From Carcharhinus amblyrhynchos (lineage: Eukaryota): a DNA stretch of 64,000 bases. The notes beneath the pieces were generated by a model. It was given only the letters and a program-made list of their open reading frames with translations. It was not told the origin of the DNA and searched no databases. Positions 14,820 to 56,118 of the stretch are shown piece by piece. The stretch covers positions 90,830,001-90,894,000 of the forward strand of contig OZ336873.1 in NCBI GenBank assembly GCA_965287045.1, in the 5' to 3' direction. A program made the translations under genes and the position numbers. The stretch's first letter is position 1; each line of letters begins with the position of its first letter.

Positions 14820-16433
14820 GGAAAAGATCTGAAGAAAAACTAAAAATCCTTTCCTTTTGGGATATTTTGCTGCGATGTGTTTCTAAATCCTGTCTCACCA
14901 TCCTAGTAATGCAAGCAGATTTCAGATTGCTGTGAGTGTTAGGCAAGGCAATATAGTCCAAAACTCATAGCAACATACAATCCATTCCCATTACTGGTGT
15001 AGTGAGATCGAGATCAGAAACACTCACCAACATGCACAGTATTGGCAGCAAACATAGCTTTTATTTTAATCTAATTTTATAAAGTTATATCGGTTGCTTT
15101 GTTTCAAGCTTTATTCCATTCTTCCCCACAATGTGAAACACTCCTGTTCCTTTCTCATTGCTTCTTTGTGAGCAGACCTGATATCTATATCTCTGAGCCT
15201 GGAAAGTTAGTGTACCTCAACCGAAATTTCTGATGGCTGAATACAGTAAGGCCCATAAATCCATTCAGAGTGTGAGCTGAAAAGCTTATCCTTTCTGTTT
15301 CACAATCATTCAAATATTCACAGTGACTCCGGACTCTGAGTGACAGACTTGACATAGTGGGTATTGCTAACAAATGCTTGGTTATTGGCTTTAGCCCAAA
15401 AGTGTCCAATGTTGTAAAGTGCTGTGGCTTCATTAATATTCTAATGGACATTATTAGCCTCTAGCAAAAGAACATCATGCATTTCATAGATAATCTGTAT
15501 TGACTTGCTTTTGTATCTGCTTAATATAGGAATCTAAACTCAGAATTGTACATTGTGCATGTATATAGCTACGGCGAGTAATGCATAGTGAAGTACTCTC
15601 AGATTTCAACACCAGTTTTGTATTAGATTTTCATTCAGCTAGTCACCTGGCCTATTTAGGCTCGGATGGTTGACCATCCTGTCACTATCAGAGAAACTCA
15701 AAAAAAAGAAATGACTTCAATAAAACAGCATTATTGCAATGCTCGTCACCAGTTTGCTTCAGATGGCTGTTTTAATTTTTGCTAAGCAAAGATGAACAGC
15801 AAACTTTCATTCTTTTTAGTACATATTTGCCCTTGATTGCAGTGTTACATAAATATAACTAAAGCAAACAAATTCAAACAATTCCAAAATAAAGTTCAAT
15901 TCCACCAGCATGAAACAAAGTAACCAGACTGAACATAATTATAAAAATGTAAACTGAAGAAGAATTTAAATAAATATCACTATCGCTAGAAATCAGGGGA
16001 TGAATCTAAATATGTCCTGAAATTAGTCCAAACCCTGCACAGAAAATTTAATACAAAGTATAACACTAACACATTGAGCAAATAAACAGACGACAGAGAA
16101 TTCTGGAGCAGTGGAACAAAATTCATTAAAAAGCATGAGGCAGGAAATCTTATTGGAAAGGCAATGGGAGAGATAATGGGCAGAATTTTTGGAAGCTCAT
16201 AGGGCAGACGCTAAGGTGGGCAGCATATTGGTTTGCCAGAACCATCCCTTAAACCTTTTTCATGAAAATCATGTTGAGCACAGAATAGATTAAATTAAAT
16301 GTTAAAAGGCCAGTTAAAACCATTGATCAAAGGCCAACTAAAATGTTCCAGTTGGCCTGCAATGCAAGAACATAGTAGATGTCCCTCAAGATTTGAGAGT
16401 GCAACTACCACCCTTAATTTGATGATGAGTAAT

Positions 16434-16566
16434 GTCTGTGCTTTATATGCTCTGTCTGAGGCCAGAACTCTCCATTCACCTGACGAAGAGGGAAACCTCG
16501 AAAGCTAGTGAGTCTACTATCAAATAAATCGGTTGGACTTAAACCTGGCGTCGTCAGACTTTTTAC
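16434..16566 (+). mobile_element. Penelope-like pseudo-LTR mini-insertion
   Basis: Homologous to the 3' ends of the Penelope copies at 41399 and 55390; TSD GATGAGT at 16424-16430 and 16567-16573. Confidence 0.82.
16474..16513 (+). ncRNA. Minimal type I hammerhead ribozyme motif with intact core
   Basis: AUUCAC-CUGACGA-A-GAGG(GAAA)CCUC-GAAA-GC-UA-GUGAGU: 6-bp helix I, helix II with GNRA loop, palindromic AGCU helix III, predicted cleavage after A16507. Confidence 0.78.
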
Positions 16567-16874
16567 GATGAGTTATTGGCCAGTTATTGGGCAATCCTGT
16601 AAAAATCACTTAGCTATGACCGGGATCTGCATTTGATGCCAACATCGGGTTCTTGACCCAACACTGAAAATCCTGCCTAATATGTTAAAATGAATGTTTT
16701 CCTTATAAAAGTTTAATTTTGAGGTGACACAATAGTTCAAAAAAAAACTTAATTCAATTATTCTTTGAATTTTCCCTTAAGTCATGCTCCTAGCCCAATC
16801 TTCTCACGTTTTGACCTTGACAACAGTTGGGCAACTCAACTGAGAAGTGTAAAAAAATTGTTTGTTTTTAATGA

Positions 16875-17232: not shown

Positions 17233-17238
17233 TTTATT
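17233..17238 (-). other. Candidate polyadenylation signal of P2RY4-like gene
   Basis: AATAAA on the minus strand ~210 nt after the stop codon. Confidence 0.35.
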
Positions 17239-17446: not shown

Positions 17447-18589
17447 CTATCTCCGGCTCTGAGTAATAAAGTAGACACTTTGAGTGCCAAACACTGACTG
17501 TCCATTCATTTTGTAGTCCACGTTTGCTGCTGTTTGCCGAACACAACCTTTTCTCATCAGCATCACATGCTTAAGTTTTCTTCGATAATTGTCTCCAGCC
17601 AGGAAGTACAAAATTGGGTCAATGCAGCTGTTGATACTGACCAATGGTCTTGTGATTTTATATGTGAAGTTCACGATATTAAGTGCATGACAGTCCTTGT
17701 CGAATAGCCTGAAGGTGTAGTACAATGTTCTTGTGATGTGGAAAGGTACAAAACACAGGAAAAAGACAATTAACACAATGATGATCAATTTAATCGATTT
17801 CTTTTTGACATTGCGTAAAGATCTGTTGGAACTAGACACAAGGGCTTTATTCAACTTTATGGTCATTAAGCTGTAACAGGAGATAATGATGACGAAAGGT
17901 ATGATGAAGAGAATCACCATGATTGCAGAGCTATATAAAACATATTGGGGGAAATCTTCTCTACGAGTCGTGTCATGACAAAGTATCTCATCACCCCTAT
18001 TGCTTGTTGTGACAAAAAGCAAATTGGGAATGAGGCAGATGATGACTACTACCCAGACCAGCATGCACACTACCCAGGCACGTTTCACTTTAATCCATTT
18101 GAGTGATTGGAAGGGAAAGCACACACCAATGAACCTATGCACACTGATGCAGGTAAGAAAAAGGATGCTGGAGTAGATGTTGGCATAGAAAATGAAGCGG
18201 GTTAACTTACACAGGACCACACCGAATGACCAGTGATTTCGATTGGCATAGTAATATGTGAGGAGTGGCAGAGATAGCACATATAGAAGGTCTGACAGGG
18301 CCAAGTTAAACATATAGGTTATAGTTGCATTCCATGGTCGCATCTTGCACAGAAACATCCACAGTGCAATGGCATTGAGAACAAGGCCCACCACACATAC
18401 AGTTCCATAGGATACTGGCAATAGAATATATTTGAACTCTTCATTGAAATGGCAACTGTATTTGTTGTTGCTAGAACCATTACCAATGTCAGAATTAGTT
18501 TCCAGAGGTGTAGACTCGCTGTATCCAAAGGTTGAGAATATTGGTACAGTAGGGGCCCAATGGTAACTCAATATTATTCTTGCTACCAT
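17447..18589 (-). CDS. P2RY4: P2Y purinoceptor 4-like nucleotide receptor (class A GPCR), ~380 aa, single coding exon
   Basis: Intact 7TM ORF: CHFNEEFKYILLPVSYG, NLALSDLLYVLSLP, FLTCISVHRF, PNLLFVTTSNRG..LCHDTTR, CFVPFHITRTLYY, YKITRPLVSINSCIDPILY, closest by recall to P2RY4 rather than P2RY2 or P2RY6. ATG at 18589 is the first after the splice acceptor. Confidence 0.9.
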   Translation of the reverse strand: MVARIILSYHWAPTVPIFSTFGYSESTPLETNSDIGNGSSNNKYSCHFNEEFKYILLPVSYGTVCVVGLVLNAIALWMFLCKMRPWNATITYMFNLALSDLLYVLSLPLLTYYYANRNHWSFGVVLCKLTRFIFYANIYSSILFLTCISVHRFIGVCFPFQSLKWIKVKRAWVVCMLVWVVVIICLIPNLLFVTTSNRGDEILCHDTTRREDFPQYVLYSSAIMVILFIIPFVIIISCYSLMTIKLNKALVSSSNRSLRNVKKKSIKLIIIVLIVFFLCFVPFHITRTLYYTFRLFDKDCHALNIVNFTYKITRPLVSINSCIDPILYFLAGDNYRRKLKHVMLMRKGCVRQTAANVDYKMNGQSVFGTQSVYFITQSRR

Positions 18590-18604
18590 TTGATACAGTC
18601 CAAC

Positions 18605-18622
18605 CTGGGAAGAGAACAACAA
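18605..18622 (-). other. Splice acceptor of the P2RY4 coding exon
   Basis: Minus strand ttgttgttctcttcccag|GTTGG, 15 nt before the ATG. Confidence 0.75.
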
Positions 18623-19170
18623 ATATTGCTTAGAGAGCCTCATGAAAAATATTTAAAATCTGACCCTTTTAAGCAGTCTCATTGTAAAAATAGTTGTGCT
18701 ACAGCACTGAAGCCCAAAATGTGTGAGTCAATCTTGTAACAGAATTGTGTGTGTCTGACAATTCGCGCAAGTAACGTTGGTAATATTGGTCAATATCAGA
18801 TACATCTTGTCACAGGTGCAGTTTTGCTATACTTCAAAACAAAATAAAAGACTTCCTAGGATCTTCAGAATTTCCTCTACCTGACCTGCATCCAGGCCCA
18901 AGTTGGAGAGAAAATATTGCTCTGACATTTGTTAAATATATGCAACATTTCATTGTGGATTTAATTTTGCTTAGATTCCTGAATTGGGAGATAACCTAAA
19001 TTTTCTTAAGTACAGCTAGTAATGCCAGAGGGGAATATTTGTCATTCTGTTAGGGAAGGTTACTGTAAGCAATCCTTTCAAGAGTTTTGACAGTTGATTC
19101 AATCACTTCAGATATATTTCAGAATATGATAGATCTGGAACAATGACATTTTTTGTGTCCAAATACTCAC

Positions 19171-19668
19171 CTTACTCTTACATCTTCTAAAGCTGCCATA
19201 TGCTGCTTTTACTGCCTCCATATGCATCCAACTATTCAGCTATAGCAGGCACAGCATCCAAGCAGATGCTGCACAATCACTGACACTGGGTTCCCTCACT
19301 TGGAGGACAAGGCGGCACACAATAGAAGGGGGCAGAGCAGATCCAGAGAGACGAGTGCAACTGCACCCCCTGAGCCCTACCTTCCCACCATACCAGGCCA
19401 CATCCTGGTAAACCTCCTTTGCACCCTTTCCAATGCCTCCACATCTTTCTTATAATGCGGCGACCAAAACGTACACAATACTCCAAGTGCGGCTGCACCA
19501 GAGTTTTGTACAGTTGTAACATGACCTCACGGCTCCGAAATTCAATCCCTCTACCAATAAAAGCTAACACGCATACGCCTTCTTAACAACCTTATCAACC
19601 TGGGTGCCAACTTTCAGGGAGTTGAACAAGAAACTAGCTGTGATAGGACTCCCAGCATCCAAAAATCA
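19171..19668 (-). other. Candidate non-coding 5'UTR exon of P2RY4 containing a recent insertion
   Basis: Acceptor aattttaatgttctcag at 19669-19685; consensus donor AAG|GTGAGT at 19173-19165. Confidence 0.35.
19379..19621 (-). repeat. Exact 243-bp duplicate of CR1 segment 20888-21130
   Basis: Base-for-base identical by eye, including private frameshifting deletions. Confidence 0.92.
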
Positions 19669-19887: not shown

Positions 19888-21297
19888 ATAGAACATAACA
19901 GCGCGGTACAGGCCCTTCGGCCCTCGATGTTGCGCCGACCAGTGGAACGAATCTAATGATCCTCTAACCTAAACTATTCCAATGTTATCCATATGCCTAT
20001 CCACTGACCATTTGAATGCCCTTAAAGTTGGTGAGTCCACAACTGCTGCAGGCAGGGCATTCCACGCCATTACTACCCTCTGAGTAAAGGACCTACCTCT
20101 GACATCCGTCCTATAACTACCACCCCTTAATTTTAAACTATGTCCCCTCGTGTTAGCCGTCACCATCAAAGGATCCAATCCTTTGATCATCTTAAGAACA
20201 TAAGAAATAGGAGCAGGAGTAGGCCATCTAGCCCTTCGAGCCTGCCCCGCCATTCAATAAGATCATGGCTGATCTGTCGTGGCTCAGTTCCACTTTCCCG
20301 CCCTCTCCCCATAACCCTTAATCCCTTCTCTTATCAAAAACCCATCAACCCGCTTCTTAAAAATATTTAGCGAGGCAGCCTCCACCACTTCAACGGGCAG
20401 AGAATTCCAGAGATTCACCACCCTTTGAGTGAAGAAGTTCCTCCTCAACTCCGTTCTAAACCGCCTCCCCTTTATCTTGAGGCTGTGCCCCCTAGTCCTA
20501 CTGTCTTTTTTGAGCGGGAAGAGTCTCTCCACCTCTATCCTATCCATCCCATTCATCATCTTATACGTCTCAATGAGATCTCCCCTCATTCTTCTAAACT
20601 CTAACGAGTACAAGCCTAGTTTATTCAGCCTCTCCTCATAGCTCAATCCCCTCAACTCCGGTATCAGCCTAGTAAACCTCCTCTGCACTCCCTCCAGGGC
20701 CAAAATATCCTTGTGCAGGTGCGGCGCCCAAAACTGCACACAGTACTCCAGCTGCGGCCTCACCAATGCCCTATACAGCTGCAGCAAGACCTCCCTACTT
20801 TTATATTCAATCCCCCTCGCTTAGGTCACCTCGTAATCTTCTTCTCTAATGAAAATAACATCAGGTCCCTCTGCCTTTCCTCATAAGACCTTCCCACCAT
20901 ACCAGGCCACATCCTGGTAAACCTCCTTTGCACCCTTTCCAATGCCTCCACATCTTTCTTATAATGCGGCGACCAAAACGTACACAATACTCCAAGTGCG
21001 GCTGCACCAGAGTTTTGTACAGTTGTAACATGACCTCACGGCTCCGAAATTCAATCCCTCTACCAATAAAAGCTAACACGCATACGCCTTCTTAACAACC
21101 TTATCAACCTGGGTGCCAACTTTCAGGGAGCTATGCACATGTACCCCGAGATCTCTCTGCTCGTCAACACTACTAAGAGTCCTTCCATTAGCCCTATATT
21201 CTGTACTCCTGTTACTCTTACCAAAGTGAATCACCTCACACTTTTCCATATTAAACTTCGTTTGCCACCTCTCGGCCCAGCTCTGCAGCTTATCTCT
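19888..21297 (-). mobile_element. CR1 LINE 3' part, interrupted by another CR1
   Basis: Tail plus RGHSLKLRGGSYRTDVRGR; resumes at 20821 with LYKTLVQPHLEYCV. Confidence 0.9.
20193..20820 (-). mobile_element. Young 5'-truncated CR1 LINE (second family) nested in CR1
   Basis: Uninterrupted 167-aa ORF2 C-terminus (LYRALVRPQLEYCVQFWAP..FFTQRVVNLWNSLP), CpGs retained, tail ttcttatgttctta. Confidence 0.93.
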
Positions 21298-41398: not shown

Positions 41399-42369
41399 TG
41401 TAGAGATGCCGGCGTTACTGGGGTAACTACAGGTTTATTTGGTAGCACAAGCCACTAGCTTTTGGAGCGCTGCTCCTTCATCAGGTAAATGCAAGCTCTG
41501 TTCACAAACAGGGCATATAAAGACATACACTCAATTTGCAAAATAATGGTTGGAATGCAAGTCTTTATAGGTAATCAAGTCTTAAAGCTACAGACAATGT
41601 GAGCAGAGAGAGTGGTAAGGTTAAAGAGATGTGTATTGTCTCCAGACAGGGCAGTTAGTGAGATTTTACAAGCCCAGGCAAGTCATGGGGGTTACAGATA
41701 GTCTGACATGAACCCAATATCCCGGTTGAGGCCATCGTCATGTGTACAGAACTTGGCTATCAGTCTCTGCTCAGTGACTCTGCGCTGTTGAGTGTCGTGA
41801 AGACCGCTTACCTGAAGATCAGAGGCTGAATGCCCGTGATCGCTGAAGTGTTCCCCAACAGGAAGAGAACGCTTGCCTGGTGATTGTCGAATGGTGTTCA
41901 TTCATCCATTGTCATAGTGTCTGTACGGTCACCCCAATGTACCCTTGGGACATCCTTTCCTGCAGCATATCAGGTAAACAACGTTGACCAAGTCGCAAGC
42001 GTATGTACCACGCACCTGGAGGACAGTGTTCTCATGTGAAATGATGGCATCCATGTTGATGAGCTGGTACATCTTGCAGAGGTTGCTGTGGCAGGGTTGT
42101 GTGATGTTGTGGTCACTGTTCTCCCAAAGGCTGAGTAGTTTGCTGCGAACAATGGTCTGTTTGAGGTTGTGCAGTTGTCTGAAGGCAAGAAATGGGGGTG
42201 TGGGGATGGCTTTGGTGAGATGTTCATCTTCATCAATGACATGTTGAAGGCACTGGAGAAGATGTCGTAGCTTCTCCACTCTGGGGAGATACTGTACAAT
42301 GAAAGGTACTCTGTCCACCGTGCACAGCGTCCATGGCATACAGAGTACCCTTCGTTGTCCAGTACTTCC
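41399..42369 (-). mobile_element. Penelope-like element (GIY-YIG region plus pLTR)
   Basis: DRVPFIVQY, PFLAFRQLHNLKQTIVRSKL, NVVYLICCRKGCP, LPVGEHFSDHGH, AEQRL-like TEQRLIAKF..GLNRD. Confidence 0.92.
41450..41490 (-). ncRNA. Hammerhead motif, probably inactive (G12 to A)
   Basis: UUUAC-CUGAUGA-A-GGAGC(AGC)GCUCC-AAAA-GCUA-GUGG. Confidence 0.65.
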
Positions 42370-42371
42370 AG

Positions 42372-42512
42372 CAAACCCACGCAGAGTGTTTGCATGTTCT
42401 CCATGGGAGAACATGAAAACTCCACAAAGACGTTGACCTGAGGCTGGAATCGACCCCAAGTCCCTGGGGCTGTGAGGCAGCAGTGCTAATCACTGTGGCA
42501 CTATGCCGCGCC
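42372..42512 (-). mobile_element. V-SINE 5' fragment
   Basis: tRNA head and start of V-domain. Confidence 0.8.
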
Positions 42513-47395: not shown

Positions 47396-48490
47396 GGGGG
47401 TGATTCTCCCCAAAAAATTCTAAGTGTCAAATTTGCGGGAAAACTGAAATAATTCACAGTGGTTTTATCAGTGGGAGCTCTAAAATGAATCTCCCACACT
47501 CTGTACACTACACAGTGCGCTAGCATGAATTGCACAAATAATCAGTGGGTTGGGCTTATTCCCACTGGAGAGGCTGGCAGCATAGTGCTGATGTGGAGAT
47601 GCCGATGTTGGACTGAGGTAAACACAGTAAGAAGTCTCACAACACCAGGTTAAAGTCCAACAGGTTAAAGACTATAAAATAGACCTGTTAGACTTTAACC
47701 TGGTGTTGTGAGACTTCCTACTGAGCATAGTGCTGAGTAAACCCCTGCACATGCAGCACTCTATCAGAGCTGTCTGCCAGCTTCCCAATTGCTGGTTAGC
47801 TTGATCGCTGGCCAACCCTGTGAATCATGCAACACCAGCTCTCCGCCATTCCATGCCACACCCCCCACCTCCCCAAGCATGTCCGGTCCCGATCCCAACC
47901 CCACCCTGCACCTAGGGTGCCTCAATCATTGCCCACCCTCCCCACAGCACTGATTTCCTGTTCAACACCCCTGACCCACCTCCCAAACACCATCCCCCCC
48001 AGCCTGATGACTACCCCAATCGCTGGCCTCCTATCTTCTGCTCACGATCCCAAAGTGTAAAGTGACAGCAGACCCCCACTCCCACCGATCATTTTCAGAG
48101 GCCCCACCCTGCATCGAACCTCACCCAATTTGGCCCTGCCTATTCCCGATGGGCAGTGCCAAGGTACTCCCTCAGCATTGGCATTTTGCTCCTTGGATAG
48201 TGCCAGGTGCACAGGCTGGCACTGCTGGGCTGCCAATGCCCAGTGGCACCTCCCTGGTGCCCAATCCATTTGGGGGCTGAAATTGCCCCCACCTTCACTC
48301 CAGTGGGATCAGGCTGCTGGCTCCCCAAAAGTGGGGAGCTACTGTGTGGTGTGAAACACTCCTGGTGGGGTGCGGCAGGGGTTGGAGGGGGGTGGGGGAA
48401 GAAGCTAGCGGGCCTGGAAATTTCAGTCCTCAGCCCGTTAATATTTAAATTAGAATTGCATTCTCCTTTGTATGCAAATCTAAATAATTT
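47396..48490. mobile_element. GC-rich Harbinger-type element related to 44923 (one end lost)
   Basis: Starts GGGGGTGATTCTCCC; C-rich core mirroring the G-rich core of 44923. Confidence 0.6.
47592..47723. mobile_element. Palindromic Penelope-tail mini-element
   Basis: 13-bp TSD AGCATAGTGCTGA; 41-bp inverted arms 47625-47665 and 47683-47723. Confidence 0.85.
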
Positions 48491-55388: not shown

Positions 55389-56118
55389 AACACAGTAAGA
55401 AGTCTCACAACACCAGGTTAAAGTGAAACAGGCTTATTTGGTAGCACAAGCCACTAGCTTTTGGAGCACTGCCCCTTCATCAGATGAGTGGGAGTTCTGT
55501 TCACAAACAGGGCATATAAAGACACAAACTCAATTTACAAAATAATGGTTGGAATGCGAGTCTTTACAGGTAATCAAGTCTTAAAGGTACAGACAATGTG
55601 AGTGGAGAGAGGGTTAAGCACAGGTTAAAGAGATGTGTATTTTCTCCAGCCAGAACAGTTAGTGAGATTTTGCAAGCTCAGGCAAATCGTGGGGGTTTTG
55701 GATAGTGTGACATGAACCCAAGATCCCAGTTGAGGCCATCCTCATGTGTGTGGAACTTGGCCATCAGTCTCTCCTCAGCAACTCTGCGCTGTTGTATGTC
55801 GTGAAGGCCGCCTTGGAGAATGCTTACCTGAACACCATCCACCAGGTACACAGTACACACACTTGCAAGTCGGCCAATGTTGTCTACTTGATACGCTGCA
55901 GGAAAGGATGTCCCGAGGCATGGTACACTGGGGAGACCATGCAAACGCTGCAACTACGGATGAATGAACATCACTTGACAATCACCAGGCAAGAGTGTTC
56001 GCTTCCTGATAGGGAACACTTCAGCGGTCACGAGCATTCGGCCATTGATCTTCGGGTTAATCTGGTGTTGGGGGGCTTTACTGTGTTTACCCCAGTCCAT
56101 CACTGGCATCTCCACATC
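55389..56118. mobile_element. Rearranged Penelope-like element (inverted halves)
   Basis: Minus half VSILQGG..AEERLMAKF..GLNWD plus pLTR; plus half TCKSANVVYLIRCRKGCPEAWYTGET..RMNEH (GIY-YIG) plus terminal tail. Confidence 0.9.
55449..55490 (-). ncRNA. Hammerhead motif, probably inactive (G12 to A)
   Basis: CUCAU-CUGAUGA-A-GGGGC(AGU)GCUCC-AAAA-GCUA-GUGG. Confidence 0.65.

Follow-up and report, generated by a model that had tools for sequence, protein, structure and literature searches.

A hammerhead-bearing insert near a P2RY4-like gene as the probable truncated end of a Neptune-like Penelope element whose family favors a symmetric target site

A hammerhead ribozyme motif lies close to a P2RY4-like gene in the window, the whole 64,000-nucleotide stretch of DNA analyzed in this study. 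The short insert that carries the motif is very probably a passive remnant of an abundant Neptune-like Penelope retroelement, truncated at the 5' side so that only the end is left, and its hammerhead is predicted to be silent at this site. Across the parent family, insertions exhibit a symmetric (C)TG-N16-CA(G) preference centered on a target site duplication (TSD) of ~12 bp, in the young as well as the older subfamily.

Results

Identity and age of the insert

The insert has a TSD of its own, as the initial annotation had stated, and only the length given there, 7 bp (GATGAGT), has to be corrected. The left TSD covers 16424–16432 and the right TSD 16567–16575, both on the plus strand; between them lie 134 bp (16433–16566, plus strand) of a Neptune-like Penelope element, a tail-less 3' pLTR stub truncated at its 5' end. 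The right copy carries one later substitution at 16574, where the runs X6 and X8 of two relatives read A, and the empty site in runs X14 and X18 skips 143 bases, that is, 134 + 9. Based on this skip and on the A at 16574, the TSD is 9 bp. T16433 is a tenth base, common to the left TSD and the first base of the element.

A DNA search gave 1,598 candidates. Forty of these were scored, and the best 39 sisters (the locus itself excluded) are 94–98% identical to the insert over ~134 bp. Longer sisters continue into an RT/GIY-YIG ORF, which bears out the Penelope origin proposed earlier. Among the 29 closest sister loci, 24 run on upstream into shared element sequence, and 5 end within ~6 nt of the 5' end of the window copy, in a set biased toward the window query. 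A similar solo copy is present at locus L014.

To date the insertion, eight of 22 listed public sequencing runs were used, one of which (X13) had no coverage of the site. The filled site was found in four of the eight, which comprise a second sample plus organisms A, B, and C and whose flanks are ~0.1–3% diverged; the contigs of these runs break inside the repeat and show the flank–insert junction only. The empty site was bridged in three of the eight (organisms E, F, and G, ~6% diverged). Thus, the insertion is young and lineage-restricted. Five CpGs are retained in the insert, as noted earlier, and they are no sign of selection: three are family-wide (84/102, 93/102, and 73/102 of the gapless sisters), and the other two are rare (2/102 and 7/102), so they indicate youth.

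The parent family

Full-length copies consist of a pLTR, a 38-nt tail, an 893-aa RT/GIY-YIG ORF, and a second pLTR. In six of the eight loci fetched for long frames (L222–L227), a 917-codon open frame lies between two pLTRs that are 3,023–3,026 bp apart. The 893-aa ORFs are uninterrupted (L222:2358–5519, and L223–L227), with the ATG located where the 38-nt tail ends, which makes the tail the last part of the 5' leader. Pfam reports RVT_1 in the full-length protein (E 1.5e-9) and leaves GIY-YIG unreported. In the translation of longer sisters, the RT is followed by a CX4CxxC linker and then by a GIY-YIG-type domain with a visible motif, at E 3.5e-4 and 5.4e-4 (20.7 and 21.3 bits, just under the Pfam cut-off of 22.6). 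In a protein search, 150 of 10,887 candidates were scored. The nearest named proteins of the element ORF come from sharks, with 82–91% identity, which makes a shark the likely host. A CX2-5CxxC linker between RT and EN is common to Neptune and Nematis, according to the accessible text of PMC8557442, and the linker motif, rather than a tree, points to one of these two clades.

The family is abundant. A 32-mer from the element end has 29,157 exact matches in the genome, and the broader core-intact hammerhead pattern has 33,889 (~1 per 86 kb), with 0 matches for either control. The initial annotation had held that thousands of identical, untranscribed copies would make the insert an ordinary truncated Penelope end; as regards number, the copies run to tens of thousands. 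For an unbiased view of copy shape, 90 copies within the initial 5.7 Mb of contig C1 were picked by their 3' end alone, and 19 were dropped as duplicates of a shared junction. The 71 independent copies range from 36 to 3,026 bp, and the hammerhead is incomplete in 15 of them. Fifteen 5' ends lie at 89–110 nt, just before helix I, none at 111–130 nt, and five at 131–140 nt; there is no pile-up at the ribozyme cut site, near which only 2/71 end (57–61 nt). Because the 5' ends are spread over 36–3,026 bp, no fixed 134-bp unit exists, yet there may be a minor preferred 5' end at ~131–140 nt.

These data bear on whether the insert is a discrete, self-propagating unit of 134 bp, non-autonomous and retrozyme- or SINE-like, mobilized by the Penelope protein. 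Such a unit would fit the lack of coding sequence, the TSD, the small cluster of 5' ends at 131–140 nt (5/71), and the solo copy L014; moreover, animal retrozymes have been proposed to derive from pLTRs (bioRxiv 10.64898/2026.07.22.740005, accessible part). However, active retrozymes are, by the definition in the accessible part of the same source, tandem units that each contain a hammerhead, whereas the insert is not tandem, its closest sisters mostly continue upstream (24/29), and its family has widely scattered 5' ends that mostly lie off the cut site, unlike those of a ribozyme-excised monomer. We consider this origin very improbable. The ribozyme-only, retrozyme-like unit suggested at first is thus not supported, given the upstream continuation, the length range, the 15/71 copies that lack a complete hammerhead, and the existence of intact autonomous copies.

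Short copies are often paired. Among 85 loci picked by the hammerhead pattern, 55 head-to-head pairs were found; the tail is on one arm only in 51, on neither arm in 2, and on both arms in 0, and 2 pairs are not callable. A one-sided tail with an inverted 5' copy is a known layout of Penelope-like elements (PLEs; accessible text of PMC8557442 and PMC3846280). The window copy is solo and tail-less, with a TSD. A solo pLTR could also arise if the paired pLTRs of a formerly full-length copy recombined, which would leave a like stub inside one TSD, and the 5' pLTRs of the full-length copies L184 (137 nt) and L222 (~150 nt) are of similar length. However, half of the copies in the C1 sample (45/90) are at most 140 nt long, and most short copies lie in inverted pairs, which are not expected from direct-repeat recombination; the contigs of the four filled-site relatives, broken inside the repeat, cannot show a longer allele. 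Recombination is an improbable source of the window copy, and a passive truncated end is the preferred reading.

The hammerhead motif and its conservation

The motif occupies 16474–16513 (plus strand), with a predicted cut at 16507/16508, and is of the minimal type I. The 5' strand of helix I (16474–16479) pairs with its 3' strand (16508–16513) over 6 bp, including one G-U. Direct reading of the plus strand places the CUGACGA box at 16480–16486, an extra A after A9 at 16487, helix II (GAGG-GAAA-CCUC) at 16488–16499, and A17, in the UA cut site, at 16507. G12-A13-A14 lies at 16500–16502 (plus strand), within a GAAA that spans 16500–16503. Helix III is replaced by a palindromic AGCU (16503–16506, plus strand) that would pair two motifs in a dimer; the folding prediction gives −4.5 kcal/mol for the palindrome duplex of two copies. 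The full core (CUGACGA, GAAA, and UA) and the 6-bp helix I described initially are therefore present where they had been placed, and the minimal type I with a palindromic helix III is borne out by the window sequence together with the family copies.

The core pattern has 2,811 genome-wide matches and 0 for its reversed control, so the window hammerhead is not a product of chance. A looser core pattern gives 14 matches within the 64-kb window against 6.1 expected and is too unspecific for use. The covariance-model search suggested in the initial annotation came out negative: the Rfam models return no hammerhead match, either at the gathering threshold or at E ≤ 10.

In the 267 core-intact copies of the fetched loci, position 17 is U in 187, A in 75, and C in 5, the only bases permitted by the pattern. 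The extra A after A9, which had been singled out in the window, is found in 265 of the 267. For the 20 helix II variants seen at least twice, 70/80 stem cells are Watson-Crick, compared with a shuffle mean of 56.1, and 0/5,000 shuffles reach 70, with relatedness uncontrolled. Pair 10.2-11.2 is A-U in 11 of these variants, G-C in 6, G-U in 1, and mismatched in 2; pair 10.1-11.1 is G-C in 18 and G-U in 2. Helix I is conserved across copies and shows little covariation. The covariation of helix II between subfamilies, proposed from the window alone, thus holds across the family, and it reflects selection on the parent elements, not on the window copy.

The window also contains older-subfamily Penelope remnants at 41429–42489 (minus strand) and 55389–56118. 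These are the two related copies with which the insert had been compared; their helix II differs compensatorily across subfamilies, as was stated, with the correction that both have A in place of G12. Additionally, a 99-bp palindromic older-subfamily stub without a hammerhead is located at 47625–47723. Judged from its sequence, the window motif is a genuine hammerhead of the known minimal PLE kind and the standard one of its family.

Predicted folding and cleavage

In the folding prediction, an isolated 40-mer of the window motif forms helices I and II. In the 134-nt context, the probability of helix I is 0, since the MFE fold pairs the core with a stretch at 16551–16557 (plus strand) whose sequence complements the CUGACGA box and which is thus predicted to sequester it when the tail is absent. 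For a growing transcript, the equilibrium prediction keeps helix I until ~16540 has been passed, which would leave a co-transcriptional interval. Across the family, the mean helix I probability is 0.75 in tailed copies (above 0.5 in 45/57) and 0.48 in tail-less copies (above 0.5 in 24/48); the tailed copies folded without their tail drop to 0.44 (above 0.5 in 30/57). The tail is predicted to pair with the 3' part of the pLTR and would thereby raise the helix I probability, an effect that is partial. Without a tail, the hammerhead at the window site is predicted to misfold.

Published cleavage data concern the same class of motif. A single minimal motif showed no detectable cleavage and dimers cleaved at a low level, according to the accessible text of PMC4209133, and the dimer requirement is repeated in a review (PMC6765202, accessible part). 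The Anolis motif was cleaved only with protein and was dispensable for insertion (PMC11167929, accessible part). In full-length elements, the hammerhead likely processes the element RNA as a dimer or with the help of the protein. The solo window copy has no near partner, and its downstream stretch would pair with the core.

The P2RY4-like neighbor and surrounding repeats

The neighboring gene is a P2RY4-like GPCR frame (17447–18652 from stop to stop, minus strand), whose best solved-structure match is P2Y4 (E 8.7e-121), followed by P2Y2 (2.7e-114). The identification of P2RY4 stands as the best match, and the distance changes slightly: the stop codon (17447–17449) is ~940 nt from the hammerhead cut site, compared with the ~930 nt given before. 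The hammerhead is antisense to the P2RY4 mRNA, which would carry the complement of the motif, and an AATAAA on the P2RY4 strand (17233–17238) comes before the insert. Within 264 kb around the site, there are seven core-intact motifs, and the distance to the closest same-strand ones is 77 kb and 81 kb.

It had been suggested that the ribozyme cuts plus-strand transcripts running antisense into P2RY4. Exaptation of this kind, with an effect on the gene, would be in line with the intact core, the helices I and II of the isolated 40-mer, the 940 nt to the P2RY4 stop, and the presence of the insertion in a second sample and three related organisms. In contrast, the insertion is absent from three relatives, helix I has a probability of 0 in context, no same-strand partner lies within 77 kb, and the AATAAA of the P2RY4 strand precedes the insert; a lone minimal motif moreover belongs to a class without detectable cleavage (PMC4209133), and the Anolis motif without protein gave none (PMC11167929), as far as the accessible text of both sources goes. 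With 33,889 such cores, one per ~86 kb, closeness to a gene is expected. Exaptation is very improbable, and regulation of P2RY4 is unlikely and unsupported: the insertion is lineage-restricted, a partner for dimer formation is lacking nearby on the same strand, and misfolding is predicted. The P2RY4-like gene is best seen as a bystander of a passive stub.

Upstream of P2RY4, a 243-bp direct repeat with 100% identity (19379–19621 and 20888–21130, 1.5 kb apart) flanks RT-like fragments.

The insert had also been placed inside a MITE. A possible old inverted-repeat element hosting the insertion extends over 16178–16678, strand not assigned, as delimited by inward-facing 12-mers only. These flanking 12-mers (at 16178 and 16667–16678) fit a motif with 31,697 genomic occurrences, compared with 426 for the control (74-fold). 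Genome searches with the body of either flank returned only the locus itself and no homologue. Among 20 loci with the 12-mer motif, an inverted partner was found downstream in 4 (all within 50 nt) and upstream in 1, and none of the 20 aligned to the window flanks above shuffles. A MITE host is plausible on these terminal motifs and unproven.

Two further repeats were observed. At L263, L275, L276, and L279, tiny elements of ~50 bp are bounded by the inverted 12-mer motif. At 6018–6123 (minus strand), a 5S rRNA-like match (49 bits) marks the end of a repeat of ~290–400 bp with several copies in the window, likely a 5S-derived SINE.

Target site preference

For 272 unique element ends, CAG peaks 15 nt past the tail-less end. 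A CAG starts at 12–19 nt in 90/132 tail-less ends (control windows, 17/132 and 31/132) and, similarly, in 86/136 tailed ends (control windows, 19/136 and 23/136). We then turned to head-to-head pairs in which an exact TSD of 7 bp or more was present; 74 qualified, and the others were dropped. The TSD is 11–13 bp in 48/74 pairs, and the family mode is 12 bp. Centered on the TSD, TG-N16/17-CA is present at 60/74 sites compared with 19/268 control windows, and the extended CTG-N16/17-CAG is present at 34/74 compared with 1/268. After similar sites were clustered, TG-N16/17-CA was retained in 54/67; it also held in both sub-samples (41/52 and 19/22). A half-site spacing of 16 dominates (47), whereas any other spacing from 10 to 23 reaches at most 13, and the TSD edges most often lie 2 nt inward of the half-sites.

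The preference is seen genome-wide in both subfamilies. With a single control offset, CAG at +15 compared with +28 was counted 2,730 to 384 times in the young subfamily and 1,794 to 393 times in the older one, an enrichment of 4.6- to 7-fold. In the literature searched, which lies outside Repbase, Dfam, subscription papers, and supplements (any of which may describe the target), a (C)TG-N16-CA(G) target was not found described. An apparent tendency for G to follow tail-less ends was confined to the initial set, which was biased toward the query, and disappeared in unbiased sets.

The window locus has the same layout. Its half-sites are CAG at 16581–16583 (plus strand), 15 nt past the element end, and TTG at 16419–16421 on the left, so that the empty site reads TTG-N16-CAG, and the right junction falls exactly at the expected nick. 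Furthermore, the arm lengths of 51 head-to-head pairs are correlated (Spearman 0.74), a value that a selection floor near 89 nt may inflate.

At L004, L112, L200, and L202, and likewise at L011, L078, and L177, independent insertions lie at similar sites inside other repeats, which suggests recurrent hot spots.

Discussion

The window stub was likely pasted in by the element's own RT-endonuclease. The protein would have nicked 2 nt inside the target half-site; reverse transcription would have been primed at the tail-less start point of the RNA and halted after 134 nt. The 5' end would then have been joined through a 1-nt microhomology, with the loss of 2–3 nt of the usual ~12-bp duplication.

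For the family as a whole, we tentatively propose, at somewhat less than even confidence, that a dimeric RT-endonuclease reads the two-fold symmetric (C)TG-N16-CA(G), nicks the strands at an offset of 12 bp, and uses both RNA start points for priming; the tail would act as an RNA switch that permits the hammerhead fold only in tailed RNA of the 5'-pLTR type, and the window stub would be a one-armed product. The protein of the Anolis element cuts both strands and extends them, has two start sites that bound the tail, and is a predicted dimer (accessible text of PMC11167929). Given these properties, a symmetric dimer that primes twice is an economical reading, and it would account for the TSD of ~12 bp, for the head-to-head arrangement of the arms, and for a tail that only one of them carries. 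The one-sided tail would also fit a single primed end followed by fold-back synthesis, a route discussed in the accessible text of PMC3846280.

The way in which PLEs give rise to inverted insertions with a single tail is unsettled (PMC8557442 and PMC11167929, accessible parts). In the genome analyzed here, the family is young and has intact ORFs, its symmetric target can be measured, and the spacing of the nicks is defined. This makes the model of a dimer priming twice directly testable in vitro. The window locus itself is of little weight, being one of tens of thousands of Penelope stubs and beside a gene by chance.

Comparison with known systems

The motif resembles the minimal PLE hammerheads of Cervera and de la Pena 2014 (PMC4209133, here and below in its accessible text), reported from the fish elements Xena, Poseidon, and Neptune. 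Shared features are the type I core, an extra nucleotide between 9 and 10.1, G10.1-C11.1, a palindromic 15.2-16.2, and the absence of loop 3; in both cases, the motifs number thousands, are mostly single and dispersed, and show covariation between subfamilies. In contrast, the helix II described here has 4 bp and a GNRA-type loop, compared with 7–8 bp in the Schistosoma example, and at least 33,889 core-intact motifs are present here compared with ~9,000 in Xenopus. Sharks are unmentioned as hammerhead hosts in that accessible text.

The parent element is similar to EN+ PLEs of the Neptune/Nematis type (Craig et al. 2021, PMC8557442; Adineta vaga, PMC3846280; both in their accessible parts) in its RT with a C-terminal GIY-YIG and a CX2-5CxxC linker, as well as in its heavy 5' truncation, inverted 5' copy, 30–40-bp tail at one end, and solo pLTRs; those elements have TSDs of 8–10 bp. 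However, the TSD mode here is 12 bp, centered in a (C)TG-N16-CA(G) that those parts do not describe for these elements, and the start of the ORF coincides with the tail end instead of lying inside the pLTR.

Non-LTR animal retrozymes (bioRxiv 10.64898/2026.07.22.740005, accessible part) are likewise non-coding, with a type I hammerhead and pLTR ancestry. Unlike them, the insert is not tandem, has no fixed unit length and no ribozyme-set ends, and has an autonomous parent with the same end in the genome.

The closest parallel in layout to the proposed mechanism is with Poseidon of Anolis carolinensis (Frangieh et al. 2024, PMC11167929, accessible part), in which two RT start sites also bound the tail, the pLTR carries a hammerhead, and the ends are not at the cut site. 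The Anolis enzyme prefers an AT-rich 5'-ATT-3', whereas the family described here favors a spaced palindrome; furthermore, the Anolis ORF begins in helix II, whereas the ORF here begins ~100 nt after the cut site.
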